Source of the DNA: an uncultured Candidatus Saccharibacteria bacterium | GTDB taxonomy: Bacteria; Patescibacteriota; Minisyncoccia; Portnoybacterales; UBA2143 | Length of the DNA: 64,000 bases | Direction: 5' to 3' | Assembly: GCA_964556655.1 (NCBI GenBank) | Contig: CAZKWY010000001.1 | Location: 7,528 to 71,527, forward strand | Shown here: positions 6,001-24,519 of the stretch, piece after piece | Layout: every line of letters starts with the position of its first letter | Numbering within the stretch: position 1 is the stretch's first letter | Translations under genes and position numbers: made by a program | The notes under the pieces: model-generated | Databases searched by the model: none | Told to the model about the DNA's origin: nothing | The model's input: the letters and a program-made list of their open reading frames with translations, nothing else

Positions 6001-6028
6001 AAGGACTGTCATTCTAGGACAGTCCTTG
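6001..6028. repeat. Palindromic repeat element, copy A (single unit AAGGACTGTCATTCTAGGACAGTCCTTG)
   Basis: A perfect inverted repeat GGACTGTC/GACAGTCC lies between the cca stop and tRNA-Pro. It belongs to the same family as the copies at 8143, 23578 and 23956. Confidence 0.7.
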
Positions 6029-6033
6029 AAAAT

Positions 6034-6104
6034 CGGGATGTAGTATAACGGAAGTACGCATCCTTCGGGTGGATGTAGTCTGGGTTCGATTCCCAGCATC
6101 CCGA
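6034..6104 (+). tRNA. tRNA-Pro (anticodon CGG)
   Basis: Manual cloverleaf: acceptor CGGGATG/CATCCCG, anticodon stem CATCC/GGATG with loop TTCGGGT, T-arm CTGGG-TTCGATT-CCCAG, discriminator A. CCA is not encoded and the variable loop is short (4 nt). Confidence 0.7.
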
Positions 6105-6158
6105 CTAAGATAGTATTTTTTAAAAAAGGTCGAAAAATAAAATAAGGAGAAAAACAAT

Positions 6159-6440
6159 ATGCTTTCGAAGTTGCCCATTGACCTAAAAAAGGTTGATAAA
6201 AACAACATCGACAAAGAAATTCTAAGACTTGGCGTCATCGCAGAACTTGATGCGGTAAGTCTTTACGAACAATTGGCCGCTATGACCGAAAACGAAAAGA
6301 TTAAGAAGATTATGTTTGACGTTGCCAAAGAAGAAAAAACTCATGTAGGGGAGTTTCAAGCACTTCTTTTGCAACTTGACCAGGAGCAAACAAAAGAGCT
6401 AGAAAAAGGCAAAGAAGAAGTAGAAGAAATAACAGAATAA
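6159..6440 (+). CDS. Ferritin-like (rubrerythrin/EncFtn-like) small protein
   Basis: 93 aa. ELDAVSLYEQLAA and the EExxH motif AKEEKTHVGEF are characteristic of small ferritin-like di-iron proteins. Confidence 0.45.
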   Translation: MLSKLPIDLKKVDKNNIDKEILRLGVIAELDAVSLYEQLAAMTENEKIKKIMFDVAKEEKTHVGEFQALLLQLDQEQTKELEKGKEEVEEITE

Positions 6441-6515
6441 GCAGAGAAATGAAAAACTGCCGCAGAAAAAAAGATCTGCGGCAGTTAATGCGCTGGATAA
6501 TTAAGTTCTTAAAAA

Positions 6516-6588
6516 GGGCCAATAGCTCAGCTGGGAGAGCGCAGCATTCGCATTGCTGAGGTCGAGGGTTCGAATCCCTCTTGGTCCA
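6516..6588 (+). tRNA. tRNA-Ala (anticodon CGC)
   Basis: Manual cloverleaf with the G3:U70 alanine identity pair (acceptor GGGCCAA/TTGGTCC), anticodon stem CAGCA/TGCTG with loop TTCGCAT, T-arm GAGGG-TTCGAAT-CCCTC. Confidence 0.8.
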
Positions 6589-6604
6589 CCGAAGAATAAG
6601 TCTT

Positions 6605-6979
6605 ATGCTGGCAAAAGATAAACTAGGCAAAACCGGAGAAAGAATCGCGGAAAAATTCTTAAAAGAAAAAGGTTATTTTATTCTAGCAAAAAACTACAGA
6701 AAACCATGGGGAGAAATTGATATTATTGCCGAACAAAATAAAGAAATAATTTTTGTCGAAGTGAAAACAAGAACAAGTAATAATAAAAACCCAGTTCTTC
6801 CGGAAACGGCAGTTAACTACTACAAGCAAAGAAAGATTATTAAAACAGCCCAAACGTATCTTTTAGAAAAAAGTTACCACGAAGAAACACCTTGGCGAAT
6901 TGATGTTATCGCCATAGAAGTTTCCGCCCTTAAAGAACATCCTCTTATAACCCATATAGAAAACGCTGTCTGGGAATAA
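6605..6979 (+). CDS. YraN-family (UPF0102) endonuclease
   Basis: GERIAEKFLKEKGYFILAKNYRKPWGEIDIIAEQNKEIIFVEVKTR is the YraN signature. I placed the start at the ATG at 6605 because the longer ORF overlaps tRNA-Ala. Confidence 0.65.
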   Translation: MLAKDKLGKTGERIAEKFLKEKGYFILAKNYRKPWGEIDIIAEQNKEIIFVEVKTRTSNNKNPVLPETAVNYYKQRKIIKTAQTYLLEKSYHEETPWRIDVIAIEVSALKEHPLITHIENAVWE

Positions 6980-6995
6980 AAATATTTTTGTCTTC

Positions 6996-8213
6996 TTGCC
7001 AAAACTTAAATTTATGGATTATTCCAAAGAATCTCTTTCTTTGCACAAAAGAAACAAAGGTAAAATAGAAATAAAATCTAAAATAAAGCTTAGCGACAAG
7101 AGAGATTTAAGCCTGGCCTATACTCCTGGCGTAGCCGAACCGTGCAGGAAAATAGATCAGCAGACTTCTCGAGTCTATGATTACACCATTAAGGGCAACA
7201 GCGTAGCAGTAGTCTCCAACGGCACTGCTGTCCTAGGGCTTGGAGACATAGGGCCCCACGCCGCTATGCCAGTAATGGAAGGTAAATGCCTGCTTTTCAA
7301 AAAATTTGCCGGCATTGACGCTTATCCAATATGCCTAGATGCCAAAGACTCTGAAAAAGTAATTGAAATAACTAAAGCAATAGCGCCAGGCTTTGGAGGC
7401 ATCAACCTAGAAGATATCAAAGCGCCTGAGTGTTTTAAAATAGAGGAGAAACTAGCTCGAGAGATAGACATTCCTGTTTTTCACGACGATCAGCATGGCA
7501 CAGCTATTGTTGTTTTAGCGGCTCTTATTAACGCGCTAAAAATCGTCAAAAAAGAAATAGGGGAGACAAAAATTGTCGTTAGCGGAGCAGGAGCCGCTGG
7601 AATAGCCACAGCCAGACTACTTTTAGCAAAAGGCGCGCAAAAAATAATTCTCGTTGACAGAAAAGGAATAATTTACAAGGGTAGGGAAGAGCTAAATCCT
7701 GAAAAACAAAAAATGGCTGAACTAACTAATCCGGAAAAAATCAAGGGCGACCTCCAAGGAGCGCTTGAAAAAGCCGATGTTTTCATCGGCATTTCGTCAG
7801 GCAACCTACTAAAAAAAATAGACATTAAAAAAATGTCCTCTAACGCAATCGTTTTTGCTATGGCCAATCCTATTCCAGAAATTATGCCTGATGAAGCCAA
7901 AAAAGGCGGAGCTATCATTGTTGCCACAGGAAGAAGCGACTTTGAAAACCAGATCAATAATGTTCTCGTTTTCCCAGGTTTTTTTAGAGGGCTTTTAGAT
8001 AGTCGGGCTAAAAAAATAACCACGGAAATGAAATTATCTGCCGCCCACGCCCTAGCCAAGATAGTTAAAAATCCTACTCCCAAAAAGATCATTCCTTCGG
8101 TTTTTGAGAAAAATATTGCCAAAATCATATCGTCAAACATCCAAGGACTGTCAAAAAAGGACTGTCCTAAAATTACAGTCCTTGGAAGGACTGTCAAAAA
8201 AGGACTGTCCTAA
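6996..8213 (+). CDS. NAD(P)-dependent malic enzyme (small type), with the last ~23 codons supplied by a palindromic repeat element
   Basis: 405 aa. [27 protein letters not shown] and [11 protein letters not shown] are malic-enzyme motifs. The C-terminal [23 protein letters not shown] is encoded by repeat copy B. Confidence 0.8.
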
Positions 8214-8232
8214 AATTACAGTCCTTGGAAAG
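8143..8232. repeat. Palindromic repeat element, copy B (two tandem ~43-bp units)
   Basis: The unit AAGGACTGTCAAAAAAGGACTGTCCTAAAATTACAGTCCTTGG occurs twice and is 90 bp in total. It overlaps the malic enzyme 3' end and lies just upstream of the trxB-like start. Confidence 0.8.
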
Positions 8233-8238
8233 GGATTA

Positions 8239-9126
8239 ATGAAAGATTTAATAATTATAGGAGCGGGGCCAGCAGGAATATGCGCAGGAGTATATGCCGA
8301 AAGGTATAAAATGAATTTTTTAATAATGGGAGAAAAGCCGGGAGGAACAGTAAATGAAGCGCATAAAGTAGAAAACTATTTAGGTTTTGGCTCTATTAAT
8401 GGGAAAGACCTAGCCGAAAGGTTCGCTAGCCACATAAAATCAGACATTGTCAATGAAAGAGCGGAAAGAATCTGCTCTCAAAAAGATTTCTTTGAAATAC
8501 AAACTAACCGAAACAAATATAAAGCGAAATCATTAATTATCAGCTTAGGCATGAAGTCAAAAAAGCTAGACCTAGAAAATGAAGCTAAATTTCTCAACCA
8601 AAGCATTTTTTATTATCTTCCTTCAAAGGCAAGTATTTTCAACCAAAAAGAAGCGGCTGTTGTCGGAGGAGGCGATAGCGCTTTAGACGCCGTTCTTAAA
8701 ATTTCTCTAGAAGCTAAAAAAGTCTATCTTATTCATAGAAGGAACGAGTTTAGAGGGTCGCCTGATCTTTTAGAAAAAGCGGAGCAAAAAGAAAATGTCA
8801 CCATCCTGCGAGAAAGGCGGGCTAAATCAGCGCGAGGAGGGAAAAAATTAGAAAAAATTATTCTTGACAATGGAAAAGAAATTAAGATAGATCTTCTTTT
8901 TGTCCAGATAGGAGGAGTGCCTAATGTTTCCCTGTGCGCAAACCTTAGCCTTGAGATGAAAGGAAGCTTTATTAAAACAGACAAAACCCAGTCTACAAAC
9001 AGAGATGGAGTATTCGCCGCTGGAGATATCACTAACAACCCATTAAAACAGATTATCACCGCCGCGGCTGAAGGCGCCATCGCGGCAACCAGCGCCTATC
9101 GCTTTATTAAAGGGACAAATAATTGA
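8239..9126 (+). CDS. Thioredoxin-reductase-like FAD/NAD(P)-binding flavoprotein lacking the CxxC redox centre
   Basis: IIIGAGPAGICAGVYAERY (FAD GxGxxG), VVGGGDSALDAV (NADPH site) and FAAGDITNN motifs are present. Where TrxR carries CAT/VCDG the sequence reads YYLPSKASIF. Start is the ATG at 8239 with a GGAAAGGGA Shine-Dalgarno; the track's longer ORF begins inside the repeat. Confidence 0.7.
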   Translation: MKDLIIIGAGPAGICAGVYAERYKMNFLIMGEKPGGTVNEAHKVENYLGFGSINGKDLAERFASHIKSDIVNERAERICSQKDFFEIQTNRNKYKAKSLIISLGMKSKKLDLENEAKFLNQSIFYYLPSKASIFNQKEAAVVGGGDSALDAVLKISLEAKKVYLIHRRNEFRGSPDLLEKAEQKENVTILRERRAKSARGGKKLEKIILDNGKEIKIDLLFVQIGGVPNVSLCANLSLEMKGSFIKTDKTQSTNRDGVFAAGDITNNPLKQIITAAAEGAIAATSAYRFIKGTNN

Positions 9127-9180
9127 CAATCTCTCTGAAAACATGATAAGCTTTTAATAAGGTAAGAAAAGAGTTATTTT

Positions 9181-9207
9181 GTCCGCCCGAAAGCGGACTT
9201 TTGTTTT
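9181..9207 (+). terminator. Rho-independent terminator after the trxB-like gene
   Basis: GTCCGC-CCGAAA-GCGGAC followed by TTTTGTTTT. Confidence 0.6.
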
Positions 9208-9220
9208 AAAAGAAGCATTT

Positions 9221-9229
9221 TGTTATAAT
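9221..9229 (+). promoter_or_regulatory. Extended -10 promoter element (TGtTATAAT) upstream of nusA
   Basis: TGnTATAAT matches the extended -10 consensus and lies 43 nt upstream of the nusA ATG. Confidence 0.4.
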
Positions 9230-9271
9230 TTAAGATTCCTACTATTTTAAATAATTTCTCAAAATAAAATT

Positions 9272-10645
9272 ATGGAACAACAATCATTTGTCTCAGCCCT
9301 AGAACAAATTTGCGAGGAAAAAGGAATTTCCAAAGAAAAAGCCATAGAAACAGTGGAGCTAGCTTTAGCGGCGGCCTATAAAAAAGAATACGCGTGCAGA
9401 AATAAAAATATTCGAGTAAAACTAGACCCTAAAAGCGGCGAGATGAAAATTTATCAGATCAAGACAGTCGTTGACGAGTCAATGATTAAATCAGAAGAGG
9501 AAATTGCTCAAGAAAAAGAAGAAAAAGGGATAGATAGCGAGCCAGAAAATAAGCAAGAACAGGAAGACGACCTCCCAGAAGAAGAAAAAAAAGTAAGATT
9601 TAATCAAGAAAAGCATGTTATGGCAGACAAGATAAAAGAAGATGAAGACATTCCTAAGAAGAAAAAAGAGAAAGAATATCAAGTAGGAGAGGAGATAAAA
9701 ATCCCTCTTAAAATTACTCATGACTTCGGCCGCATTGCCGCCCAAACAGCCAAACAAGTTATTATCCAAAGGATAAGAGAGGCTGAAAGAGACGCAATTT
9801 TTGAAGAATATAAAGATAAAGAAGGTCAGATAGCCAGCGGCATTATCCAGCGGATAGAAGGCAATACCGTCTTTTTGGATATTGGCAAAGCCACGGGCGT
9901 CCTTTTTCCTGAAGAGCAAATCTCGCATGAAAGATACCGTCTCGGGCAAAGAATTAAAGTGTATCTTGCCGAAGTGCAAAAAGACTCGCGAGGTCCCACC
10001 ATTGCTCTTTCGCGATCTCATCCTCAAATGATCAGTCAGCTCTTTTATCTAGAAGTTCCAGAGATAGCAGCTGGATCAGTGGAGATCAAAGCTGTGGCGC
10101 GCGAAGCAGGCTCCCGTTCTAAAATAGCGGTCAGCTCAACAGAAGAGAAAATCGACCCCATTGGCTCAATGATCGGACAAAAAGGGACAAGAGTTCAAGC
10201 AGTCATTAACGAACTAAACGGAGAAAAAATAGATATTGTTGAGTGGTCAGAAAACCCTGTCCAATATATTACTAATGCTCTTTCTCCTGCCAAAGTAATT
10301 GACGTTAGAATGAAGAAAGAAAAGAAGGAAGCAGAGGTGGTTGTTCCAGAAGAACAACTCTCTCTAGCGATCGGGGTAAAAGGACAAAATGTTAGATTAG
10401 CCGCCAAGCTAACTGACTGGAAAATAGACATCAAGCCACAAGAAGAAAGTCCCAAAGAAAAGAAAGGGGAAAAGGGGAAAGAAGAGAAAAAAACAAAACT
10501 AAAAGGCAAAGAAGAAAAACCAGCTCAGACAGAAAAAAAAGAGAAAAAAACCTCCAAAAAGAAGGCAACAAAAAAAGAAACGGAGGGGGACAAGGAAGAA
10601 AAGCTAAAGAAAAAAAGTAAAAACATTGCGAAAAAAAATAAATAG
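9272..10645 (+). CDS. nusA: Transcription termination/antitermination factor NusA
   Basis: 457 aa. It has an N-terminal domain, an S1 region (GQIASGIIQRIEGNTVFLDIGKATGVLFPEEQ), tandem KH motifs (IGQKGTRVQAVINELNGEKIDIV, AIGVKGQNVRLAAKLTDWKIDIK) and a long K/E-rich low-complexity insert and tail. Confidence 0.85.
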   Translation: MEQQSFVSALEQICEEKGISKEKAIETVELALAAAYKKEYACRNKNIRVKLDPKSGEMKIYQIKTVVDESMIKSEEEIAQEKEEKGIDSEPENKQEQEDDLPEEEKKVRFNQEKHVMADKIKEDEDIPKKKKEKEYQVGEEIKIPLKITHDFGRIAAQTAKQVIIQRIREAERDAIFEEYKDKEGQIASGIIQRIEGNTVFLDIGKATGVLFPEEQISHERYRLGQRIKVYLAEVQKDSRGPTIALSRSHPQMISQLFYLEVPEIAAGSVEIKAVAREAGSRSKIAVSSTEEKIDPIGSMIGQKGTRVQAVINELNGEKIDIVEWSENPVQYITNALSPAKVIDVRMKKEKKEAEVVVPEEQLSLAIGVKGQNVRLAAKLTDWKIDIKPQEESPKEKKGEKGKEEKKTKLKGKEEKPAQTEKKEKKTSKKKATKKETEGDKEEKLKKKSKNIAKKNK

Positions 10646-10656
10646 AAAAAACAAAA

Positions 10657-10690
10657 AGAGGATGTCTTGCCAAGCATCCTCTTTTTGTTT
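10657..10690 (+). terminator. Rho-independent terminator after nusA
   Basis: AGAGGATG-(10 nt)-CATCCTCT followed by TTTTGTTT. Confidence 0.6.
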
Positions 10691-10928
10691 GACAAAACAG
10701 GCCATCTCCTGATAAAATTAAGCGGTCATTAAAAGACATTAATAAAAATAAATGGCAAATTTCCCTTTGTTTATCTATTTATTGATCTAAAAAATCTATG
10801 AGAAAAGACCAAGCAAAACACATATTTTTTCAGACAGGCCAGTTTCTGCCTAATTTAGCTTTTCTTTTTTTTAATGTAAACGCACGCATTCAAAAGATAA
10901 CCATAAAGGAATTTACCAAAAGAGAAAT

Positions 10929-12461
10929 ATGGACAATCAACTTATTCTTATTGGAATTTTTTTCGCTACTCTTATTTTCGGCTCAACCTTGGGCTATTAT
11001 ACCAGGCAAACTATCGCCAAGAAACAAGCTGGGACAATTGAGGCAAAACTAAACAAGCTTATTGGCCAAGCCAAAGAAGAAGCCAAAGAAACTGTTTCAC
11101 GAGCCAAAGAAAAAGCCAATACTATCCTAGAAGAAATCAAGGAGCAAGAAAGAGAAAGACAAAGCCAGCTGACCAGAATGGAAGAAAGATTGCTTAAAAA
11201 AGAACAATTTGTCGATCAAAAAGGCAATCAAATAGAAAAAGAACAGCACCGACTTAAGGCCAAAATTCAAAAAGTAAAACAAATTAAGGACGAACTTTCC
11301 CAGGCCAGGCAAGAACAAACAGAAAAACTTGAAAAAATAGCTAATCTCAATCAAGATCAAGCCAAAGAAGAACTGCTTAAACTAGCCGAAGAAGACCACC
11401 AGCAAGTATTGGTGGAAAAAATCAAGAAGCTAGAACAGGAGGGGCAGGAAGAGTTAAATAAAAAGGCTCAAAGAATTATTGCTCTGGCTATGCAACGCTA
11501 CGCTGCCTCCCAAGCCAGCGAAACCACTTCTACGGCCGTTGACCTTCCCAACGAAGAACTCAAAGGGAGAATCATCGGCAAAGAAGGAAGAAATATCAAA
11601 GCGCTGGAAAAGTTTACTGGGGTAGAAATATTAGTAGACGACACTCCGGGAGCAATCATTATTTCCGGATTCGACCCGGTTAGAAGGCAAACAGCTAAGA
11701 TGGCTCTAGAAAAACTAATGGGCGACGGGAGGATCCAGCCAGCGCGCATTGAAGAAGCGGTAGAAAAAGCCACTGAGGAAATAGGGCAAAAAATTATTGA
11801 GGCAGGAGAAGCAGCCGTCTATGATGTGGGCCTTGCCGGAATCAACCCCCAGCTGGTTAAAACACTAGGACGCCTGAGGTTCAGAACCAGCTACGGCCAA
11901 AATGTTCTGCTTCATTCTGTAGAAACCGCCCATTTAGCAGGCGCCATCGCCTCTGAGCTTGGCGTTGATATTAATATAGCCAAAAAAGCCGGCCTTTTCC
12001 ATGATATTGGCAAGGCCGTTGACCATGAAGTCCAAGGCTCTCATGTAGAAATTGGCAGAAGAATTCTTCAAAAATTCGAAGTGGACGAAAAAGTTATTGA
12101 AGCTATGCAGGCACATCACGAAGAATACCCTTTTGACAGCTTGGAGTCTATCATCGTCCAAGTGGCTGACGCCATTTCCGGCGCCCGACCAGGAGCCAGA
12201 AAAGACACTCTGGAAGCTTATCTCAAAAGGCTGGAAGAGCTGGAAAGCATTGCCAACGCCTTCCCCGGAGTAGAGAAAACATACGCTGTGCAGGCAGGAA
12301 GAGAAATAAGGATTTTTGTAAAACCGGAAGAAATAGACGACCTCAAAGCCCATAAAATGGCCAGAGAAATTGCCTCTCAGATTCAGCAAGATCTTAAATA
12401 CCCCGGAGAAATTAAAGTTAATGTTATCAGAGAAACAAGAGCGATAGAATATGCCAGATAA
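10929..12461 (+). CDS. rny: Ribonuclease Y
   Basis: 510 aa. It has an N-terminal TM helix, a coiled-coil region, a KH domain (GRIIGKEGRNIKALEKFTGVEI) and an HD domain (LLHSVETAHLAGAIASELG...GLFHDIGKAVDHE). Confidence 0.85.
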   Translation: MDNQLILIGIFFATLIFGSTLGYYTRQTIAKKQAGTIEAKLNKLIGQAKEEAKETVSRAKEKANTILEEIKEQERERQSQLTRMEERLLKKEQFVDQKGNQIEKEQHRLKAKIQKVKQIKDELSQARQEQTEKLEKIANLNQDQAKEELLKLAEEDHQQVLVEKIKKLEQEGQEELNKKAQRIIALAMQRYAASQASETTSTAVDLPNEELKGRIIGKEGRNIKALEKFTGVEILVDDTPGAIIISGFDPVRRQTAKMALEKLMGDGRIQPARIEEAVEKATEEIGQKIIEAGEAAVYDVGLAGINPQLVKTLGRLRFRTSYGQNVLLHSVETAHLAGAIASELGVDINIAKKAGLFHDIGKAVDHEVQGSHVEIGRRILQKFEVDEKVIEAMQAHHEEYPFDSLESIIVQVADAISGARPGARKDTLEAYLKRLEELESIANAFPGVEKTYAVQAGREIRIFVKPEEIDDLKAHKMAREIASQIQQDLKYPGEIKVNVIRETRAIEYAR

Positions 12462-12481
12462 TCTTTAAAGAGCTAAAAACT

Positions 12482-13747: not shown

Positions 13748-13782
13748 ATAAACTTTTCAAGACATTGAAAGTCCAACGAAAA

Positions 13783-13808
13783 AAGGCGCTTTTTACGCGC
13801 CTTTTTTA
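13783..13808 (+). terminator. Rho-independent terminator after hup
   Basis: AAGGCGC-TTTTTAC-GCGCCTT followed by a T-run. Confidence 0.6.
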
Positions 13809-15568: not shown

Positions 15569-17320
15569 ATGAAGGTGGATAATTCCCAATTAAAAGCTTT
15601 CATTCTTGACGCAGAGCTAGTTAAAAAAGAAGACCTGGAAAAAGCTGATCAGAAAGCAAAAAAAGAGAAAAAAAGCCTGGGAGATATCTTAGTCCAACAA
15701 AAACTCCTTACTCAAGAACAGCTTATTAAGCTCAAAGCCTATATCCTAGGCATTCCTTTTGTAAACTTGGAAGAAGCCAATATCGACCAAGATGTTTTAA
15801 GAATTATCCCAGAACCGATTGCCAGGCGTCATAACATCATCGCTTTTCGTAAAAACGGACGCGATCTAGAAGTGGCGATGCTTGACCCCAGAGACCTTCA
15901 GACGATTGAGTTTATCAAAAAGAAGTCAAGCTTAGAAATTCTTCCCCGCCTAACTACCCCGGAAAGCATTAAAAATATCCTCAAGCAGTATCAAAAAAGT
16001 CTAGAAGCGGAATTTGGCGAGCTTATTAAACAAGAGTCTGAAATGGTCTCTCTCCCTGAAGAAGCCACCGAAAAAGAAAGCAAAGAAGACCTGGAAAAAG
16101 CAGCCGAACAAATGCCAATTATTAAAATTGTTGATACTCTTTTAAAGCATGCTATTCTCCAGCAGGCCTCGGACATTCACATTGAGCCAACAGAGAAAGA
16201 AGTTGTCGTCAGATATCGCATTGACGGCATTCTGCGCGATGCTATGACTCTGCCCAAAAAAGTTCATTCCGGCATTGTCGCGCGCATCAAAGTCCTTTCC
16301 AATTTAAAATTAGATGAACACCGCCTTCCCCAAGACGGAAGGTTTAAAATAGAAACGCCTGATTATAAAATCTCTTTCCGCGTTTCCATTCTGCCTGTCT
16401 ACGACGGAGAAAAAATAGTTATGAGGCTGCTTTCTGAAGACAATAAAGGCCTCACCTTAGAAACTCTCGGCTTGGCCGGCAAAGCGCTGGAAAAAGTCCA
16501 CCAAAACATCGCCCGTCCCAATGGCATGATTCTAGCAACCGGCCCAACAGGATCCGGAAAGACAACCACCCTCTACACTATTTTAGATATTCTCAATCAG
16601 CCAGAGGTTAACATCTCCACTGTTGAAGACCCCATTGAATACCGTATGCCACGCATCAATCAGACTCAAGTAAGACCGAAAATAGGGTTGACTTTTGCTA
16701 ATGGCCTGCGCGCTCTTGTCAGGCAAGACCCCGACATCATTATGGTAGGCGAGATTAGAGACAACGAAACAGCTGGCTTAGCTGTCAATGCCGCTTTAAC
16801 CGGTCATTTAGTTTTATCTACCCTCCATACCAACAGCGCTTCCGGCGCTTTTCCACGATTAATCGACATGAAAGCGGAGCCGTTTCTCATCACCTCTACT
16901 GTTAACGTGATCATCGCCCAAAGGCTGGTCAGAAAGCTTTGCTCAGAAACCAGAAAGGCTTATCATTTAAGCGAAAAAGACTTAAAGAATTTTTCTGAAC
17001 AAGTTGACTTAGAAAAACTATTAACTACTATGAAAAACGAAAAAATTGTCGGTCCCAAGGACACTTGGGAAACAATTAATTTTTTCCGGCCTCAAAAATC
17101 CGAAGACTGTCCTGACGGATACAAAGGACGCTTGGGTATTTATGAAGTGCTAGAAATAAGCGAAAAGATAAGAGAAATGATCGTTAAAGAAGCTAATACC
17201 GACCAGATAGAAAAGCAAGCGAAAGAAGATGGCATGCTCACTCTTATTGAAGACGGCATCATTAAAGCCGCCCAAGGGCTAACCAGCATTGAAGAAGTCC
17301 TGCGCGCTACCCAGGAATAA
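15569..17320 (+). CDS. pilB: Type IV pilus assembly ATPase PilB (GspE family)
   Basis: 583 aa. It has an N-terminal GspII_E_N-like domain, Walker A GPTGSGKTTTLY, aspartate and histidine boxes (DPIEYRMPRINQTQV, STLHTNSA), and Walker B in PDIIMVGEIRD. Confidence 0.9.
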   Translation: MKVDNSQLKAFILDAELVKKEDLEKADQKAKKEKKSLGDILVQQKLLTQEQLIKLKAYILGIPFVNLEEANIDQDVLRIIPEPIARRHNIIAFRKNGRDLEVAMLDPRDLQTIEFIKKKSSLEILPRLTTPESIKNILKQYQKSLEAEFGELIKQESEMVSLPEEATEKESKEDLEKAAEQMPIIKIVDTLLKHAILQQASDIHIEPTEKEVVVRYRIDGILRDAMTLPKKVHSGIVARIKVLSNLKLDEHRLPQDGRFKIETPDYKISFRVSILPVYDGEKIVMRLLSEDNKGLTLETLGLAGKALEKVHQNIARPNGMILATGPTGSGKTTTLYTILDILNQPEVNISTVEDPIEYRMPRINQTQVRPKIGLTFANGLRALVRQDPDIIMVGEIRDNETAGLAVNAALTGHLVLSTLHTNSASGAFPRLIDMKAEPFLITSTVNVIIAQRLVRKLCSETRKAYHLSEKDLKNFSEQVDLEKLLTTMKNEKIVGPKDTWETINFFRPQKSEDCPDGYKGRLGIYEVLEISEKIREMIVKEANTDQIEKQAKEDGMLTLIEDGIIKAAQGLTSIEEVLRATQE

Positions 17321-17347
17321 GCCCAACACAGGCGCATTTTTTAAACT

Positions 17348-18580
17348 ATGCCTAATTTTATCTATACCGCCAAAGACCAAACAGGAAGGGATATCGAAGG
17401 CCACAGCGAAGCCTCCAATATTCATGAATTGGCCAATATCCTCAGAAGAAAAAATCTTTCTCTTATCTCGGCTGATATAGCCGGAGAAGAAAGTGGCGGA
17501 TTACTGAAAAAAATCAAAATAATCTTTACCAAAACAGGCTTTGGCAAAGTTTCTTTGGTAGATAAAATGGTTTTTACTAGGCATCTTTCCGTTATGATTG
17601 AAGCTGGCCTATCTCTCAATCAATCCCTTCAAGCTCTTTCTAAACAAACTAAAAACCCGAAATTTAAAAGAATATTAAAAGACGTTGAGCAGAAAATTAA
17701 AAAGGGAGTTTCATTTAGCAACGCTTTAGGCCGGTATCCAAAAACGTTTCCTGATCTTTATGTTAATATGGTGCGGGTAGGAGAGTCTAGCGGCAATCTA
17801 GAAGAGGTGCTTAAAAAACTAGCCGAACAGATGAAGAAAAACCACGAACTGGTTAGCCGCGTCCGAGGAGCTATGATTTATCCATCTGTTATTGTGGCTA
17901 CTATGATTGGAATAGGTGTTTTTATGATGATTATGGTAGTGCCAAAACTAAGCCAAGTCTTTGCGGAACTAAAAATAGAGCTGCCTTTAAGCACGAGGGC
18001 CATTATTGCTATCAGTGAATTTCTTAAAAATAATTATCTGCTATCTCTTATCGGCTTAGCCTGCTTGGCAATCCTTTTAAAGATAGCTTTAGGCAATAGC
18101 GCCGTCAAAAAGGTTCTACAAAAAGCCTATCTCCGCATGCCTGTTTTCGGCCCTCTAATCAAAAAAGTAAACTCCGCCCGTTTTGCCCATACTTTTAGCT
18201 CTCTCATTGAAAGCGGAGTACCTATTGTTGAATCCCTTAAAATTACCGGCGGGACCCTAGGCAACATCAACTTCAAAAATTCGCTTTTAAAATCAGCCGA
18301 AAAAGTACAGGAAGGAAAACCGCTAAGCAAGGCGCTGGCCCGGCACACTCGGCTCTATCCTCCTATGATTATCCAAATGATAAGCGTAGGAGAAGAGACC
18401 GGCCGTCTTTCTGACACCCTTAAAACGCTGGCTGACTTCTATCAAGAAGAAATCGACAATACTACTAAAAATCTTTCTTCCGTTATTGAGCCAATTATTA
18501 TGGTTGTTATAGGCGCTGCGGTGGCCTTTTTTGCTATTTCTATGATCCAGCCAATGTATTCAATGATGGGAGAAATGTAA
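17348..18580 (+). CDS. pilC: Type IV pilus platform protein PilC (GspF family)
   Basis: 410 aa with duplicated T2SS_F domains (VFTRHLSVMIEAGLSLNQSL; NFKNSLLKSAEKVQEGKPLSKAL) and three TM segments. Confidence 0.85.
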   Translation: MPNFIYTAKDQTGRDIEGHSEASNIHELANILRRKNLSLISADIAGEESGGLLKKIKIIFTKTGFGKVSLVDKMVFTRHLSVMIEAGLSLNQSLQALSKQTKNPKFKRILKDVEQKIKKGVSFSNALGRYPKTFPDLYVNMVRVGESSGNLEEVLKKLAEQMKKNHELVSRVRGAMIYPSVIVATMIGIGVFMMIMVVPKLSQVFAELKIELPLSTRAIIAISEFLKNNYLLSLIGLACLAILLKIALGNSAVKKVLQKAYLRMPVFGPLIKKVNSARFAHTFSSLIESGVPIVESLKITGGTLGNINFKNSLLKSAEKVQEGKPLSKALARHTRLYPPMIIQMISVGEETGRLSDTLKTLADFYQEEIDNTTKNLSSVIEPIIMVVIGAAVAFFAISMIQPMYSMMGEM

Positions 18581-18581
18581 A

Positions 18582-19439
18582 ATGATAATTAAAAAAGACC
18601 AAGGTTTTACTGCTATTGAAATTCTGATCGTTATTTCTATCCTGATTATTCTGCTGGCTATCACTATAGGAAGCTACTTATTTTTTGAGAGAAGAAGCGA
18701 GCTTGATGATGCTACCCACCGTATTCTTGAAATTATCCGCTCGGCCCAAAATAAAACTCTTGCTTCAAAAGATGACACCCAATACGGAGTCTATTTTCAA
18801 AATGACCGCATAACCATTTTTAAAGGAGATTCTTATTCGGCTACTTCTACCGACAATGAAATATTTACCCTTCCAGACCGCTTAGAAATATACGATACCA
18901 GCCTGCGGGGCGGCGGCAATGAGCTAGTTTTTGAAAAGTTAAGCGGCCGCACCGAACAATATGGCAGCACAACTATTAGGATGATTGATCAGCCCTCTCA
19001 AGCAACCACTATTTTTATTGCTTCTTCCGGCCAGCTTAATACCAGCCAGCCTAGCGCTTGTTGCCAGAGCAATAGAATCACTGACACTAGACATCTTCAT
19101 TTTGATCTTGGCTGGAGCATCCAAAATTCTGCTACTACAACGCTTATTTTTTCCGACTCTCCGACAATAACTGAAACCATTAATATGGCTGACTATTTCG
19201 ATCCGACCAAGACAGAGTTTGACTGGAAGAAAACAATAGATGTCAATGGAGAAAATCAAACTTTGCGCATCCATACGCATTCTTTAGACGCTTTTAACAC
19301 TATTTTATGCGTCCATCGAGACCGCATGAGAAACGATAAACCTGTTCAAATAGAAATTGACGGCAAAAGCATTGTTTCTTATGACGCCGATGGAGCTATT
19401 TCTGTAGAAGCCTATGGCGGAACAGTGGAAAAACAATAA
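18582..19439 (+). CDS. Prepilin-type N-terminal cleavage/methylation domain protein (large pilin or pseudopilin)
   Basis: 285 aa. KDQG|FTAIEILIVISILIILLA is the class III signal, with G at -1, F at +1 and E at +5. Confidence 0.7.
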   Translation: MIIKKDQGFTAIEILIVISILIILLAITIGSYLFFERRSELDDATHRILEIIRSAQNKTLASKDDTQYGVYFQNDRITIFKGDSYSATSTDNEIFTLPDRLEIYDTSLRGGGNELVFEKLSGRTEQYGSTTIRMIDQPSQATTIFIASSGQLNTSQPSACCQSNRITDTRHLHFDLGWSIQNSATTTLIFSDSPTITETINMADYFDPTKTEFDWKKTIDVNGENQTLRIHTHSLDAFNTILCVHRDRMRNDKPVQIEIDGKSIVSYDADGAISVEAYGGTVEKQ

Positions 19440-19902
19440 ACAAAAAGGCATTGGCATGATAGAGGTAATGATTTCTCTAGCGATTATAGTCATCGTCTTT
19501 TTCTCTTTTATCCTGCTTATCAAAATTAATCTGCAAATCCAAAGAGAAAATCAAAACAGCCTGAAGGCCCTTAACCTTGCCACAGAGACAATGGAGGCAG
19601 TTAGAAGCTTTAAAGAAAATGACTGGAGCGCTTTTTCTTCACTGAGCACAGCTAGTCCCTATTATCCAGTTATCTCTGGAAACGAATGGACGCTTTCCGA
19701 GTCTGATCCGGGCGAAATTGACAGCTTCAGCCGATGGATTGAAATAGAAGAAGTTTACCGCGATGCTAACGACAATATCGCTGAAACAGGCAATCTTGAC
19801 AATAAAAGTCGCGAAATTAAAGCTTTTGTCCAATGGGAGGAACGGTCCAGAATAAAACAAATTACTCTTTCAAGCATTTTAACTAATTGGAAAAACCAAT
19901 AA
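19414..19902 (+). CDS. Minor pilin or pseudopilin with a prepilin-like N-terminus
   Basis: KQKG|IGMIEVMISLAIIVIVFF has G at -1, E at +5 and a hydrophobic helix. The start is ambiguous, and an alternative ATG lies at 19456. Confidence 0.5.
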   Translation: MAEQWKNNKQKGIGMIEVMISLAIIVIVFFSFILLIKINLQIQRENQNSLKALNLATETMEAVRSFKENDWSAFSSLSTASPYYPVISGNEWTLSESDPGEIDSFSRWIEIEEVYRDANDNIAETGNLDNKSREIKAFVQWEERSRIKQITLSSILTNWKNQ

Positions 19903-19906
19903 GCTT

Positions 19907-20440
19907 ATGCGCTTGCCCATCAAACAACAATCCGGCTTTACCCTGATTGAATTAGTTGTCTACGCGGCTGTTTTTATTCTTGTTATTATTCTGCTGACTT
20001 CCTTTGTTTTTGATTTGATTAAGGCGCAAAACAGGACTAGAATTAGCAAAGAACTGACTGAAAACAATAAAAGAGCGCTGGAAGCGATTGTTTACGAAAT
20101 AAAACACGCCCAAGAAATATATCTGCCTACCAGCAATTTGAGCGCAGACAAAGGACAATTAAGCCTAAAAACATCCCAAAACGCTCCTTCCGGGGAAGAA
20201 AATTCCTATATTGATATTTATTTAGACGACAACGACTGCTTATGTGTCAAAAGAGAAAGCAGCCAACCGGAAAGAATGATGTCTGAAGACATTAAAACAT
20301 CTCGTCTTTTTTTTAGCAGCTTAGGCACCAGCACTAGCCAAACCATTAGAATAAAACTAACCTCTTTTTACGATCATCCGCAGGCTAAATACCGCGCCAG
20401 CTCAACAATTATCACTTCAGCAGGATTAAGAAATGATTAA
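19907..20440 (+). CDS. Type IV pilin or pseudopilin
   Basis: 177 aa. KQQSG|FTLIELVVYAAVFILVIILL is a canonical prepilin signal. Confidence 0.75.
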   Translation: MRLPIKQQSGFTLIELVVYAAVFILVIILLTSFVFDLIKAQNRTRISKELTENNKRALEAIVYEIKHAQEIYLPTSNLSADKGQLSLKTSQNAPSGEENSYIDIYLDDNDCLCVKRESSQPERMMSEDIKTSRLFFSSLGTSTSQTIRIKLTSFYDHPQAKYRASSTIITSAGLRND

Positions 20441-21698
20441 ACACCAACAAAAAGGAGCCGCCCTTATTATAGGCATCATTATTATTATGTCTATTACTTT
20501 AATTATTGGCCTAAACCTAAGTTTTTTGGCTTTTAGCGCTATGGCTAATATGAAGAACAAAATTTATTCCGCCCAAAGCCTTTACGCCTCAGAAGCCGGC
20601 CTAGAAGACGCTCTCCTAAAATTATCTGACAGCTCTCTTTCTCTAACCAGCCCCTACAGCTTCTCCCTAGACAACCAAGCAGTGGAAGTTAATGTTTCAG
20701 AGTTAGTTGGCGGAGCAAGAACTATCACCTCTCTGGGAAACGCTGAAGAAAGAATCAAAAAATTAGCCGTCACTTATATGATTAAATCGGACGATGTCTC
20801 TTTTCACTACGGTGTTCAGATAGGAAAAGGAGGTATGATTATGGGCAACAACAGTCTAGTGGAAGGCAATGTTTTCTCCAACGGCAGCATTGTTCCGGCC
20901 GGAGGAGGCAACGGAGAGATTGACGGCACAGCTATTGTCGCCATTGACAACAACGTTCTTGATAGTATTGATGTGACCAACGGAGACGCTTACACCTACT
21001 CCTGCAAGGACTCCAATATTTCAGATACTCTTTATTATGTTTCCGGCGGTACTGTTGATAATTGCTCTTACGGCAGTTTGGTTATGCTAAATGAAGAGAT
21101 AGCCAGCGAGCCCCTGCCTATTTCCAATAACGATATTCAAGAATGGAAAACCGAAGCCGAAGCAGGCGGGACTATTACCGGAGACCATACTTACGATTCT
21201 CAAAACGCCTCTTTGGGGCCGGTAAAGATCACAGGCAACTTAACAATCACTAATAATTCTATCGTAAATATTACTGGCACCATCTATGTGCAAAAAGACC
21301 TAATTATTGACAACAACGCCATTGCAAAACTTGATTCAGAATATGGCTCTTTAAGCGGCATGGTTATCGCTGACGGGAAAATCTCTTTTAGAAACAACGG
21401 CATTGCTGCCGGATCAGGAGAAGAAGGAAGTTTTATTATGCTTCTTTCTACCAATGCTTCTCTTAACGCAAACAGCCCGGCCATAGATGTTACCAACAAC
21501 ACCGAAGGAGCTATTTTTTACACAAACACTGGTTTGATCCATCTGCATAATAATATTAATATTAAAGAAGCTACGGGCTACCAAGTTCAGCTAGACAACA
21601 ATGCTGAGGTTAATTACGAAACTGGCCTAGAAAACATCAGCTTTACTAGCGGGCCAGGAGGAAGCTGGGAAGCAGTTAATTGGCGAGAAATAAAATAA
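20433..21698 (+). CDS. PilX-N-like minor pilin with a repeat-rich (beta-helix-like) body, possibly tip or adhesin
   Basis: 421 aa. The N-terminus KGAALIIGIIIIMSITLIIGL resembles the PilX N-terminal domain. The body is N/T/G-rich with repeated motifs (NNSIVNITGTIYVQKDLIIDNNAIAKLD). Confidence 0.5.
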   Translation: MIKHQQKGAALIIGIIIIMSITLIIGLNLSFLAFSAMANMKNKIYSAQSLYASEAGLEDALLKLSDSSLSLTSPYSFSLDNQAVEVNVSELVGGARTITSLGNAEERIKKLAVTYMIKSDDVSFHYGVQIGKGGMIMGNNSLVEGNVFSNGSIVPAGGGNGEIDGTAIVAIDNNVLDSIDVTNGDAYTYSCKDSNISDTLYYVSGGTVDNCSYGSLVMLNEEIASEPLPISNNDIQEWKTEAEAGGTITGDHTYDSQNASLGPVKITGNLTITNNSIVNITGTIYVQKDLIIDNNAIAKLDSEYGSLSGMVIADGKISFRNNGIAAGSGEEGSFIMLLSTNASLNANSPAIDVTNNTEGAIFYTNTGLIHLHNNINIKEATGYQVQLDNNAEVNYETGLENISFTSGPGGSWEAVNWREIK

Positions 21699-23579
21699 AT
21701 GAACGTTTTATCTTCTCTCAACAGTAAACAAAAACAAGCAGTCACGGCTCTCAAAGGGCCTGTTTTGGTTATTGCCGGACCCGGAAGCGGGAAAACCAGA
21801 TGTCTAACCCATCGCATTGCCTATCTCGTTACTAAAAAGAAAATCCCCGCTTTTAATATTTTGGCCGTCACCTTTACTAACAAAGCAGCCCAGGAAATGA
21901 AGGAAAGATTAGCTAAAATTCTTCCACCTTCTTTTCAGAGAATGCCTGATATCGGAACTTTTCACGCTATTTGCCTGCGGATTCTTAGGCAGGATATTGA
22001 CAAACTCCCCCAAACCTCTTTAGGCAGAAATTTTGTCATTTACGACGAAGCTGACCGATTATCCTTAATCAAAAAAATTATTAACGACTTAGCTGTTAAC
22101 ACCGACCAATTCAAGCCTTCTACTCTGCAAAACACTATTTCTAGAGCAAAAGACGAATTAATTGACCCCGGATCATACCAGGAACAAGCTAAAGAATATT
22201 TTCCTAAAACAGTCGCCCAAGTTTATCAAGCCTATCAAGAGGCTCTAGCTCAAGCCAATGCCCTTGATTTTGACGATCTTATTATGCTAACCGTTAAGCT
22301 TTTCCAAACACGGCCCGATGTCTTAAAAAAATATCAAAACAGATGGCGCTATTTTTTGGTAGATGAAGCCCACGATACCAATTTAAGCCAATACAAACTG
22401 ACCAACCTTTTGGCGCGAAAGCGCCAAAACTTGTGGCTGATTGCTGATCCAGACCAGTCTATCTATATGTGGCGAGGCGCCGACTTTAGAAATATTCTTA
22501 ATTTTGAAAAAGATTATCCTAAGGCTCGCGTTATCCTTTTAGAAGAGAACTACCGCTCTACTAAAAATATCTTGGAGGCTGGCCATTGCGTTATTAATAA
22601 AAACACCCAACGCCGAGAAAAAAATCTTTGGACAAAAAATGGACAAGGCGCGCCCATTAATTTAATTCTAGCGTCAAACGAAAGAGCGGAAGGCGATTTT
22701 ATTGTCAACGAAATTGAGGGATTAATTAACGAAAAAGGATATACTCTAAAAGACTTTACCGTTCTTTACCGCACCAATGCCCAATCCAGAGCCATTGAAG
22801 AAGCCTTCCTGCAAGCCGGCTTCCCCTATAGAATTATTGGCACAGTCAAATTCTACGAAAGAAAAGAAATTAAAGATATTTTATGCTACCTCCGACTAAC
22901 AGCCAACCCTCAAGACCTCGTCAGTCTGCAAAGAGTAGTCAATCTCCCCCCGCGCCGCCTTGCTAGATACAGCAAAGATCCGTCTTTGGTCTTAAGAAAA
23001 AACGACAAAGCCCTAGAGAGTTTCAATCAGATAATGAACTCTTTTAGAATTTTCAGCCGGCAAAATTCCTTAACTGCTCTTATTAAAAAAATAATTGAAG
23101 AAATCGGCTATGAGAAATACATTAAATCCTTTGCCTCTGACGCAGAAGAAGGGGAGAGAAGATGGGAGAATGTAGAAGAAATTTTTACCGTGGCTAGCCG
23201 CTATGACAAAGAAGATCCAGGCACAGGATTAGAAAAATTCCTTGAAGAAATCAGTCTTTTGACAGGCCAAGACGAGATTGAAACCAACAGCGAAGTTATT
23301 AACTTAATGACTCTTCACTGCGCTAAAGGATTAGAATTTCCTGTTGTCTTTATCGCCGGATGCGAGGAAAGCATCCTGCCTCATTCCAGAAGCCAGCTTC
23401 ACCGGGACCAGATGGAAGAAGAAAGACGCCTATGCTATGTCGGCATTACCCGGGCTAAAGAAATTAGCTATCTTACTTTCACTAATCAACGCCGCCTGTG
23501 GGGACAAACAATGGCTAATTATCCTTCCCGCTTCCTTTCCGACTTGCCCGAACACCTCATCGCCTTCCGCCAATTCTAG
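21699..23579 (+). CDS. UvrD/PcrA/Rep-family ATP-dependent DNA helicase
   Basis: 626 aa. Motif I AGPGSGKT, Ia TFTNKAAQEM, II FLVDEAHDTN, III DPDQSIYMWRGAD, V LEENYRST, and VI TLHCAKGLEFPVVFI are all present. Confidence 0.85.
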   Translation: MNVLSSLNSKQKQAVTALKGPVLVIAGPGSGKTRCLTHRIAYLVTKKKIPAFNILAVTFTNKAAQEMKERLAKILPPSFQRMPDIGTFHAICLRILRQDIDKLPQTSLGRNFVIYDEADRLSLIKKIINDLAVNTDQFKPSTLQNTISRAKDELIDPGSYQEQAKEYFPKTVAQVYQAYQEALAQANALDFDDLIMLTVKLFQTRPDVLKKYQNRWRYFLVDEAHDTNLSQYKLTNLLARKRQNLWLIADPDQSIYMWRGADFRNILNFEKDYPKARVILLEENYRSTKNILEAGHCVINKNTQRREKNLWTKNGQGAPINLILASNERAEGDFIVNEIEGLINEKGYTLKDFTVLYRTNAQSRAIEEAFLQAGFPYRIIGTVKFYERKEIKDILCYLRLTANPQDLVSLQRVVNLPPRRLARYSKDPSLVLRKNDKALESFNQIMNSFRIFSRQNSLTALIKKIIEEIGYEKYIKSFASDAEEGERRWENVEEIFTVASRYDKEDPGTGLEKFLEEISLLTGQDEIETNSEVINLMTLHCAKGLEFPVVFIAGCEESILPHSRSQLHRDQMEEERRLCYVGITRAKEISYLTFTNQRRLWGQTMANYPSRFLSDLPEHLIAFRQF

Positions 23580-23647
23580 GACTGTAATTCTAGGACAGTC
23601 CTTTTTTGACAGTCCTTCAAGGACTGTAATTCTAGGACAGTCCTTGG
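23578..23647. repeat. Palindromic repeat element, copy C (about 1.7 units, inverted relative to copy B)
   Basis: AGGACTGTAATTCTAGGACAGTCCTTTTTTGACAGTCCTTCA plus a partial second unit. It begins at the helicase stop codon and ends 3 nt before the rsmA ATG. Confidence 0.8.
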
Positions 23648-23649
23648 CT

Positions 23650-24519
23650 ATGAACCTTACTTCGCCCAAAATATTAAGGGAAACATTTAAAAAACACGAC
23701 TTTAAACCCCAAAAAAGACTGGGGCAAAATTTTTTAATTGACCAAAATATTGTTAATAAAATTGTCAAAATAGCTCAAATAAGTAAGAAAGACACTATTT
23801 TAGAAATCGGTCCCGGCACAGGCGCTATTACTAAAGCACTAGCGCAAAAGAGCAAAAAAGTAATTGCCGTAGAAAAAGACCCTCAACTATCAAAGATCCT
23901 AAAAGAAAACCTTTCTTCTTTTAAAAACACATCCATTATTACCTCCGACATCCGCAGGACTGTAATTCTAGGACAGTCCTTTTTTGACAGTCCTTCAAGG
24001 ACTGTAATTCTAGGACAGTCCTTGAAGGACTGTCCTTGGAAGGTGGTGGCTAATTTGCCTTATTATCTTAGCCAGCATGTTATTAGAAAGCTTTTAGAAT
24101 TAGAAAATCAGCCGGAAAAAATAGTTCTTCTAGTTCAAAAAGAACTTGCCCAAAGGATTTGCGCCAAGCCCCCGCGAATGAACATTCTAGCTGTTTCAGT
24201 CCAGTTTTACAGCCAGCCCGAAATTAAAGGATATGTTTCCAAAACTTGTTTTTGGCCTCAGCCAAAAGTAGATTCTGCCATTATTGAAATAAATCCCCTT
24301 GAAAAAACACAAGAGATATCCTCGGAGAGATTTTTTAAAACAGTTAAGGCCGGATTTTTTGCCCCCCGCAAACAGCTAGCCAATAATTTAACCAGTCAAC
24401 TAAAAAAAGGAAGGGAAGGAATAATAAAAGCGATCAAAAAGACGGGGATAGAAGAAAAGGCCAGAGCAGAAAACTTAACCATTAAAGAATGGATTAATTT
24501 AAGCCGTTTATTAACATAA
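23650..24519 (+). CDS. rsmA: 16S rRNA (adenine1518/1519-N6)-dimethyltransferase RsmA/KsgA, carrying an in-frame 28-codon repeat-element insertion
   Basis: The SAM motif ILEIGPGTGAITKAL and motif IV VVANLPYYLS are present. The insert [30 protein letters not shown] (nt 23956-24039) is encoded by the palindromic element and sits just before motif IV. The track's longer ORF (from 23344) overlaps the helicase in another frame. Confidence 0.8.
   Translation: MNLTSPKILRETFKKHDFKPQKRLGQNFLIDQNIVNKIVKIAQISKKDTILEIGPGTGAITKALAQKSKKVIAVEKDPQLSKILKENLSSFKNTSIITSDIRRTVILGQSFFDSPSRTVILGQSLKDCPWKVVANLPYYLSQHVIRKLLELENQPEKIVLLVQKELAQRICAKPPRMNILAVSVQFYSQPEIKGYVSKTCFWPQPKVDSAIIEINPLEKTQEISSERFFKTVKAGFFAPRKQLANNLTSQLKKGREGIIKAIKKTGIEEKARAENLTIKEWINLSRLLT
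23956..24039. repeat. Palindromic repeat element, copy D (84 bp), inside the rsmA coding sequence
   Basis: It is near-identical to copy C plus a GAAGGACTGTCCTTGG extension. The length is a multiple of 3 and the reading frame is preserved across it. Confidence 0.8.

Follow-up and report, generated by a model that had tools for sequence, protein, structure and literature searches.

A probable REP/REPIN-type repeat family at gene ends and inside coding sequence in a Patescibacteria genome, with a transposase partner in relatives

Introduction

Two published superfamilies of repetitive extragenic palindromic (REP) sequences are recognised by a conserved four-base tag, GTAG or CGTC, at one hairpin end (Di Nocera 2013, PMC3733652). 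In several species REPs have also been reported within coding sequence, frequently as dimers that encode 20–30 residues. Their hosts are enriched in genes for DNA repair, UvrD/Rep helicase among them, and for RNA-binding enzymes; REP ends provide stop codons, and recB of two Xanthomonas species carries different REPs at roughly one site (PMC3733652). Rickettsia offers the classic example of palindromes read in frame. Among the Rickettsia palindromic elements (RPEs), RPE-1 copies measure 100–150 bp and the RPE sequences of R. conorii end in CGTC (PMC3733652). Here we analyse a family of palindromic repeats in a 64,000-nt stretch of a Patescibacteria genome (contig CAZKWY010000001.1 of assembly GCA_964556655.1, GTDB order Portnoybacterales; hereafter the window), in which four clusters, copies A–D, lie at gene ends and within coding sequence.

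The four clusters probably represent a REP/REPIN-type family (REPIN, REP doublet forming a hairpin) whose partner, a REP-associated tyrosine transposase (RAYT), is found in related Patescibacteria. The original prediction, made from the window alone, had likened the repeats to RPEs; the in-frame behaviour is indeed shared, but a RAYT gene flanked by hairpins in relatives makes REP/REPIN the more precise identity. Most of the features that define REP/REPIN–RAYT systems are found in these relatives; this genome itself is a candidate member. The repeats are tolerated and partly co-opted in coding sequence, and they are long-standing residents of fixed sites with renewed sequence, not elements new to the window's lineage.

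Results

A hairpin-forming repeat in four clusters

All four clusters (Table 1) are built from a near-palindromic arm, AAGGAC(A/T)GTCCTT, which forms the building block of their hairpin units; the tally is about 11 units over 64 kb. A 23-nt core, allowing up to three mismatches, matches the window seven times against none expected in shuffles, and the 8-mer AGGACTGT is found 20 times (0.6 expected), 19 of these inside the clusters. As single-stranded DNA the clusters fold with z = −5.5 to −8.9 (copy A, 11-bp stem, −11.3 kcal/mol, z = −6.7; copy B, −27.7 kcal/mol, z = −8.3; copy D, −29.5 kcal/mol, z = −8.9). Matches this far above shuffles, together with the strength of the hairpins, bear out the dispersed palindromic family first proposed, and each of its four copies is present at the predicted position. 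At gathering thresholds Rfam reports only six tRNAs in the window and no family at the repeats.

Copy B comprises two tandem 43-bp units, as predicted, which are 100% identical; it is the reverse complement of copies C and D with 98% complementarity, confirming its inverted orientation relative to D. The family core that had been described is real, but the copy B units carry ATTTTA in place of ATTCTA, and the 43-bp tandem period, although correct for copy B, overlies a 14-bp phasing set by AGGAC(W)GTCCT arms (W, A or T). Tandem Repeats Finder likewise detects a 14-bp period in the clusters, because the arm is itself nearly palindromic, such that the two arms of each hairpin resemble direct repeats. 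A run of 69 nt is the same in copy C as in copy D (23578–23646 and 23956–24024, 100%). These two direct repeats are 378 bp apart and bracket the first 102 codons of rsmA; the pair shows recent homogenisation inside this genome and is a ready substrate for deletion or gene conversion. In both repeats the first hairpin is followed by TTTTTT (units at 23578–23610 and 23956–23988), resembling an intrinsic terminator with a 9-nt loop, one of them inside rsmA. Terminator and promoter scans of the window flagged no repeat cluster as a terminator; the terminator scan allows loops of up to 8 nt, and this T6 hairpin goes unreported because its loop exceeds that limit. A solitary core-like 13-mer elsewhere in the window may be a remnant or a chance match.

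The family and its transposase in relatives

A metagenome scan with the inner hairpin ACAGTCCTT-N0–5-AAGGACTGT returned at least 120 loci, a set whose proportions are conditional on selection by that pattern. In about half of 120 loci, among the matches listed, the element is a perfect palindrome of 52–57 nt with a nested layout: GGGAC(W)GTCCC, a 5–6-nt spacer, ACAGTCCTT, a loop, AAGGACTGT, a spacer and a second GGGAC(W)GTCCC. The window unit AAGGACTGT-N6-AGGACAGTCCTT is one half of this inverted doublet, and it is this half that the window copies repeat in direct arrays; outside the window, L080 and L012 have direct dimers too. Spacers vary between copies yet remain complementary. In a set of 32 distinct REPINs taken from relatives, pairing holds in 98% of cells (27–48% in slid controls), with double changes in six pairs and 39 double-change cells against 9.6 in shuffles, none of 500 shuffles reaching 39. 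The extraction pattern demanded the arms and not spacer complementarity, so the result is not circular. The stem is therefore kept by compensatory changes among the relatives' copies, which are what this test covers. Dozens of copies show flanks of the form c/gAGGGAC...GTCCCTg/c only, with neither GTAG nor CGTC.

Scanning genome contigs with AGGACTGTN6AGGACAGTCCT gave 16 loci, most of which we set aside as ordinary hairpin terminators in Firmicutes and Bacteroidota, probably matched by chance. Only two, the Saccharibacteria contigs L004 and L012, hold the true family, which therefore extends beyond the window's Parcubacteria-like lineage; these two metagenome-assembled contigs carry AAGGACWGTCCTT outer units (L004 1836–1886 and 3110–3157; L012 2402–2458). 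The genome from which the window comes was not among the 16. Two isolated matches in viral contigs are without the family architecture and were taken as chance.

Many elements lie in or against coding sequence. An open reading frame (ORF) reads through 25 of 118 non-redundant elements and 21 of the 118 overlap a gene 3′ end, by a crude test (at least 60 codons on both sides for an intragenic call) that wrongly scores copy C as intragenic. Judged by sequence motifs, the intragenic hosts include RecG, glutamyl-tRNA synthetase (GltX), MiaA (three cases, two sharing one site), a MiaB-like enzyme, glycosyltransferases and a radical-SAM protein; UvrD also hosts an in-frame copy (L017, L145). Glycosyltransferase ORFs of L058 and L112 carry multiple REP-derived segments in one gene, N-terminal (QGTVPEGQSFREGLSLRNSPL) as well as internal; a single protein can therefore tolerate several copies.

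Locus L078 has a gene between two elements whose product carries a HUH motif and a YIHLNP tyrosine motif and matches Pfam Y1_Tnp (E = 2.6e-13). Its best NCBIfam match is REP_Tyr_transpos at 75.1 bits, as against 17.6 bits for the IS200/IS605 insertion sequence (IS) model. The best sequence match in the PDB is the E. coli RAYT 4ER8 (E = 0.34, ~15% identity). For P0122, a 96%-identical homologue, the AlphaFold2 model (mean predicted local distance difference test score (pLDDT) 88.9) is again closest in fold to 4ER8, a structure with a bound REP hairpin (E = 2e-7, template modelling (TM) scores 0.62/0.73, 158 columns), ahead of IS608 and ISDra2 TnpA at a query-normalised TM of ~0.45. These scores point strongly towards a RAYT, though short of the curated cut-off. 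Homologues are abundant in Patescibacteria, some named RayT by the Joint Genome Institute. Searching with tblastn, we found a Y1_Tnp gene in 9 of the 120 pattern-selected loci among the matches listed, each flanked by hairpins on both sides, and five transposase loci (L064, L040, L130, L025 and L043) have flanks of the window's own AAGGAC(W)GTCCTT (AAGGACWGTCCTT) form. The L130 homologue (4640–5293, reverse strand), flanked by AAGGACWGTCCTT units, contains an in-frame stop (LEVR*NSEVP) and may be a decaying copy.

Three further loci, L142, L143 and L144, were fetched through the RAYT and not through the repeat, and so constitute an independent test. Together with L078 they present a conserved order: a gene for a large LTD/beta-helix protein, the RAYT (58–99% identity to the L078 protein across conserved-synteny loci) and a sigma-70 plus DUF5667 pair. 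In L078, L142 and L143 the RAYT is immediately followed by an NTP-transferase gene, which in L144 lies ~5 kb upstream. Because this neighbourhood is conserved across the four loci, the RAYT behaves as a vertically inherited gene, unlike an insertion sequence. The L143 RAYT (80% identical to that of L078) has flanks of the same family, GGGACWGTCCC type, with further copies after neighbouring genes; the L142 RAYT (73%, Portnoybacteria) is flanked by TGGAGCAGCTCCATTGGAGCAGTTCTTAAGAACTGCTCCAATGGAGCTGCTCCA, of GGAGCWGCTCC type, and the L144 RAYT (58%) by AAGGCCGTGCCTTAAAATGTACAACCTTAAGGTTGTATGTTTTAAGGCACGGCCTT, of AAGGCCGTGCCTT type. A nested architecture is common to all three sets of flanks. In these comparisons, repeat sequence co-varies with RAYT lineage, as expected under co-evolution.

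Copies at gene ends and within RsmA

Table 1. Repeat copies of the window and the genes beside or around them (64-kb window coordinates).
Feature	Position	Strand	Description
Copy A	6001..6028	+	single REP unit AAGGACTGT-CATTCT-AGGACAGTCCTT
Copy B	8143..8232	−	two identical 43-bp units, orientation opposite to C and D
Copy C	23578..23647	+	REP + TTTTTGACAGTCCTTC + REP; occupies entire UvrD–rsmA intergenic space
Copy D	23956..24039	+	84-bp REP array, in-frame in rsmA
Solitary core-like 13-mer	60863..60875	+	AAGGACTGTCCTG; inside ORF 60440–61618, no partner arm
CCA-adding enzyme/poly(A) polymerase family gene	4560..5999	+	Pfam PolyA_pol, PolyA_pol_RNAbd, HD; upstream of copy A
tRNA-Pro(cgg)	6034..6105	+	ARAGORN, Rfam; downstream of copy A
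Malic enzyme gene	7014..8213	+	Pfam malic, Malic_M; PDB 5cee, E = 9e-132; 3′ end is copy B
Thioredoxin-reductase-like flavoprotein gene (trxB-like)	8239..9126	+	Pfam Pyr_redox_2; starts 7 nt after copy B
UvrD/PcrA-type helicase gene	21699..23579	+	Pfam UvrD-helicase, UvrD_C; stop overlaps copy C
rsmA/ksgA	23650..24519	+	Pfam RrnaAD, E = 8e-55; PDB 6ifs, E = 4e-54; hosts copy D

Three of the copies lie at gene junctions. Copy A begins 2 nt past the CCA-adding enzyme stop, with 5 nt between its end and tRNA-Pro(cgg). Copy B supplies the last 23 codons of the malic enzyme together with its TAA stop, just as had been predicted, and takes up most of the space before the trxB-like ATG. Similarity to malic enzymes of known structure runs out at ...ISSNIQ(GL), where copy B starts. 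Copy C, again as described at the outset, spans from the helicase stop codon, whose TAG it overlaps by the AG, to 3 nt ahead of the rsmA ATG.

Copy D lies within rsmA, in frame and upstream of the NLPY motif as predicted. Its 28 codons encode RsmA residues 103–130, between motif III (D100) and motif IV (N135-L-P-Y), and end four codons ahead of N135; among the three plus-strand frames of the copy, that of rsmA is the only one free of stops. The closest RsmA orthologues are 53–55% identical, their named sources being Patescibacteria, Parcubacteria, Portnoybacteria or Staskawiczbacteria. With copy D excised, 2–3 residues would be left between D100 and K131, shorter than the shortest orthologue loop (~10 residues; most have 12–17), and copy D has therefore replaced native loop sequence rather than simply being added to it. 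The idea of an added peptide is thus right as to reading frame and wrong as to pure addition. The corresponding segment of B. subtilis KsgA (6IFS) has 21 residues, ten fewer than the window RsmA. In an AlphaFold model of the latter (pLDDT 88.8) residues 106–119 fall below 50, consistent with a disordered surface loop; residues 120–126 are modelled as a helix preceding the motif IV strand, the last ten residues of copy D being modelled as helix plus the start of the strand.

Fixed sites and exchanged palindromes

Each of the four window sites holds related elements at the orthologous position in relatives (48–70% protein identity). The CCA-enzyme/tRNA-Pro(cgg) junction is occupied in L080 (70% protein identity, same tRNA synteny), L057 and L119, and the malic-enzyme/trxB junction has a REPIN in L115 (68% and 48% protein identity). 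L017–L019 carry elements at the helicase/rsmA junction as well as in the rsmA loop, and L147 and L148 have a single outer unit at this junction. L017, whose RsmA is 54% identical and whose pilus-gene/helicase/rsmA synteny is that of the window, carries palindromes in three places: the junction, the rsmA loop and the helicase gene itself. Cores are intact at these orthologous sites despite the protein divergence, at which neutral DNA would be scrambled. L145 has a different long hairpin at its helicase/rsmA junction (2250–2330, AGGTCAGACCCTTATTTTT...AAAAATAAGGGTCTGACCT), and its RsmA (P0077) has a second insertion of ~20 residues further downstream (APIRFLEQKFLETAPIKLKTAPKISAPKS).

The insertions had been thought lineage-specific. 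This does not hold: all four sites are occupied in relatives, and rsmA loop palindromes are found in many Patescibacteria (L017, L145, L146, L147 and L148 among them). Nor do orthologues share the 28-residue segment as ordinary conserved sequence, which was the other outcome envisaged; the loop is occupied there too, but the segments differ, and they derive from palindromic DNA rather than from conserved protein.

What occupies a site can change family. The rsmA loop of L145 (Portnoybacteria) is a palindrome of the L142 type and that of L146 is of the L144 type; in UvrD, after PPRRLA[KR]Y, L017 has a GGGAC-type and L145 a GGAGC-type element at the same codon, where the window helicase has none. 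Among the 120 best RsmA matches the motif III–IV loop ranges from ~7 to 54 residues, and many loops look repeat-encoded. Other repeat-looking loop peptides in this survey (FVIPAKAGIQ...KPGMT, NSKFQIPNSK and RQGFGGQA; P0043, P0078, P0035, P0075, P0033, P0016 and others) suggest that this loop also hosts additional repeat families of unrelated sequence. The clearest pair is L147 and L148, otherwise ~99.6% identical in DNA with one mismatch in ~430 nt upstream of the rsmA loop and one in ~80 nt downstream, whose loop sequences are AAAGGCACGCCCTTTTTGCCACATCCCTTTTGGAAAAAGGGTGTAGCAAAAAGGGCGTGCCTTT and AGGGACAGTCCTTCAGATACAGTCCTTGATTCAAGGACTGTATCTGAAGGACTGTCCCT, respectively: a recent replacement in place. 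The swapped tract reaches beyond the palindrome by three or four codons to either side, and these non-palindromic codons resemble another allele (P0002).

Mechanism and alternatives

We propose that in relatives a Y1 HUH tyrosine transposase, apparently single-copy, has the hairpins as its partners, some flanking its gene and others dispersed. If it works as E. coli TnpA-REP and the IS200/IS605 enzymes do, the RAYT would recognise a folded hairpin in single-stranded DNA, cut beside it and rejoin, and this cutting and rejoining could multiply, invert, tandemise and homogenise the units. With almost no room between genes in these genomes, the copies that survive lie on gene ends, donating stop codons and C-terminal tails, or in insertion-tolerant protein loops with a stop-free frame. 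We infer that a RAYT acts or acted in the window genome; turnover would proceed by its action or by homologous recombination, and the reaction chemistry is presumably that of the analogous enzymes. A bolder model, which we put forward tentatively and think rather unlikely to hold, casts REPINs as replaceable cassettes at fixed addresses (gene junctions, the RsmA motif III–IV loop and the UvrD PPRRLAKY site) that outlast deep divergence: the current family would repeatedly overwrite the resident through RAYT action on the resident hairpin, with no new insertion, making REP-derived sequence an obligatory, rewritten part of essential enzymes.

Several observations count against a REP/REPIN assignment. 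The window copies are direct arrays of 42/43 bp and not the inverted doublets typical of relatives, and their density is modest, at four clusters in 64 kb. The GTAG or CGTC end tags of the two published REP superfamilies are missing. A tblastn search of the 64-kb window with four RAYTs and three of their syntenic neighbours found none of them, and the L078 transposase itself scores slightly under the 80-bit cut-off of NCBIfam. Proportions among the metagenome loci depend on their having been picked by repeat pattern. No transposition event was observed: the one recent change observed is the L147/L148 swap, which may be ordinary recombination, and for which homologous recombination of motif III–IV DNA is at least as likely as transposase action because the swapped tract includes non-palindromic codons resembling P0002.

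The hairpins could instead be functional for the host, in RNA processing or stability, in transcription punctuation or as protein-binding sites, and be kept at fixed sites by purifying selection with the RAYT at most a maintenance partner. We consider this possible but doubtful, and it overlaps with the REP/REPIN reading rather than excluding it. Perfect cores persist at orthologous sites in genomes with flanking proteins just 48–70% identical, the stem is preserved by compensatory changes and most copies are at gene 3′ ends or between co-directional genes, all of which a host function would explain, as it would a RAYT inherited vertically in conserved synteny like a domesticated gene. A sequence-specific requirement is harder to square with different palindrome families at one site, even in near-identical strains; many copies lie in unrelated coding regions with no obvious use for a strong RNA or DNA signal, no window copy passes the terminator scan, family copies are generally without a T-run, and no Rfam family matches.

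It is improbable that the repeats are instead derivatives (palindrome-associated transposable elements, PATEs, akin to miniature inverted-repeat transposable elements) of an active, multi-copy IS200/IS605 element and not REPs of a domesticated RAYT. The RAYT model outscores the IS200 model by the margin given above, even though the protein has the IS200-like Y1_Tnp domain and falls slightly short of the RAYT cut-off. Among structures it comes closest to the E. coli RAYT, in an alignment that takes in the additional C-terminal part. IS200/IS605 elements carry subterminal hairpins as well, but here one and the same palindrome stands on both flanks, with no difference between left end and right end. 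The gene sits between the LTD/beta-helix and sigma-70 genes in L078, L142, L143 and L144 rather than at varying insertion sites, and no tnpB is adjacent in these four loci.

We give almost no credence to the remaining view, that the rsmA segment is ordinary inherited variable-loop coding sequence resembling the repeats by chance or that the repeats are assembly artefacts, for although the KsgA motif III–IV region varies in length in all bacteria and part of the segment is modelled as helix, 69 nt are identical between intragenic copy D and intergenic copy C, the loop DNA is a perfect palindrome in relatives and has been swapped between nearly identical strains, and three independent assemblies from three samples (L017–L019) have the same kind of element at the same sites, with reading frames intact.

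Two further candidates were rejected. An integron attC-like cassette array was considered on account of the 570–770-bp spacing in L078, L084 and L087, but there is no integrase there, the genes are ordinary housekeeping genes plus the RAYT, and elements also lie inside genes. For a DNA-uptake sequence, parS or another protein-binding site nothing was found in support; the density is low and the copies are clustered.

Genomic surroundings

A type IV pilus/type II secretion system block (T2SSE, T2SSF and prepilin-like genes) occupies 15569–21698 of the window, directly upstream of uvrD–rsmA. The same arrangement is found at L017 (1436–7975) and on the near-identical contig L018, and pilin-like genes precede the helicase in L146 and L147 too. 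The region from 40000 to 46000 is a probable replication origin region, with Pfam-confirmed dnaA (42133–43494) and dnaN (43663–44775), a cumulative GC skew minimum near 44 kb, GC content down to 32–35% and an inverted repeat pair at 45720–45826.

Discussion

With these findings REP/REPIN–RAYT biology reaches the Candidate Phyla Radiation (CPR), in what seems to be a first; CPR genomes are tiny, gene-dense and known only from metagenomes. The original prediction knew of no such description in a lineage of this kind, and we too found none in the literature on RAYT, REP, palindromic elements and miniature inverted-repeat transposable elements in Patescibacteria/CPR; for RAYT it returned only unrelated word matches and one preprint's RAYT KEGG orthology entry, in an archaeon. 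In-frame intragenic REPs and stop-donating REP ends are already known in other phyla; what is new is the phylum, how densely copies occur in coding regions, and sites that stay fixed while their sequence changes. The family accounts for a class of puzzling peptide segments (RTV/GQS/DSP/DCP/GLS and others) that litter the protein alignments and annotations of Patescibacteria. The persistence of REPINs can be studied cleanly in this natural setting, in which the same codon-level sites hold different palindrome families across lineages and strains that are nearly identical differ only in the palindrome of their rsmA loop. The family also marks such repeats as recombination and assembly hazards, the identical pair around the start of rsmA being an example.

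Compared with the REP/REPIN–RAYT systems (REPtrons) of E. coli, Pseudomonas and Stenotrophomonas, the present family likewise consists of dispersed short hairpin repeats, often inverted doublets or arrays, lying mostly at gene 3′ ends and sometimes donating stop codons. A Y1 HUH transposase gene, apparently single, with repeats on its flanks is again the partner, repeat sequence co-varies with transposase lineage and inheritance is vertical. It differs in its nested build (an outer 11–13-nt palindrome and an inner arm, with ~14-bp phasing), in a Patescibacteria host with almost no intergenic space and a high in-frame share, and in a RAYT just below the NCBIfam cut-off, ~15% identical to 4ER8 and absent from the window. 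With IS200/IS605 elements and their derivatives it has in common the Y1 HUH transposase fold and, by analogy, hairpin recognition in single-stranded DNA; the present gene has identical flanking palindromes, no TnpB and no varying insertion sites, and its product matches RAYT models and the RAYT structure better.

RPEs are largely decayed, and we know of no transposase for them. The present family is not one of them, given its Patescibacteria host, different core sequence and lack of a CGTC tag. As with RPEs and intragenic REPs, in-frame peptide segments are tolerated in functional proteins, and DNA-repair helicases and RNA-modifying enzymes are hosts here as they are of published intragenic REPs. 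Unlike RPEs, the present elements have cores and stems that are still perfect and a RAYT as candidate partner, and at a fixed codon position one palindrome family is exchanged for another.

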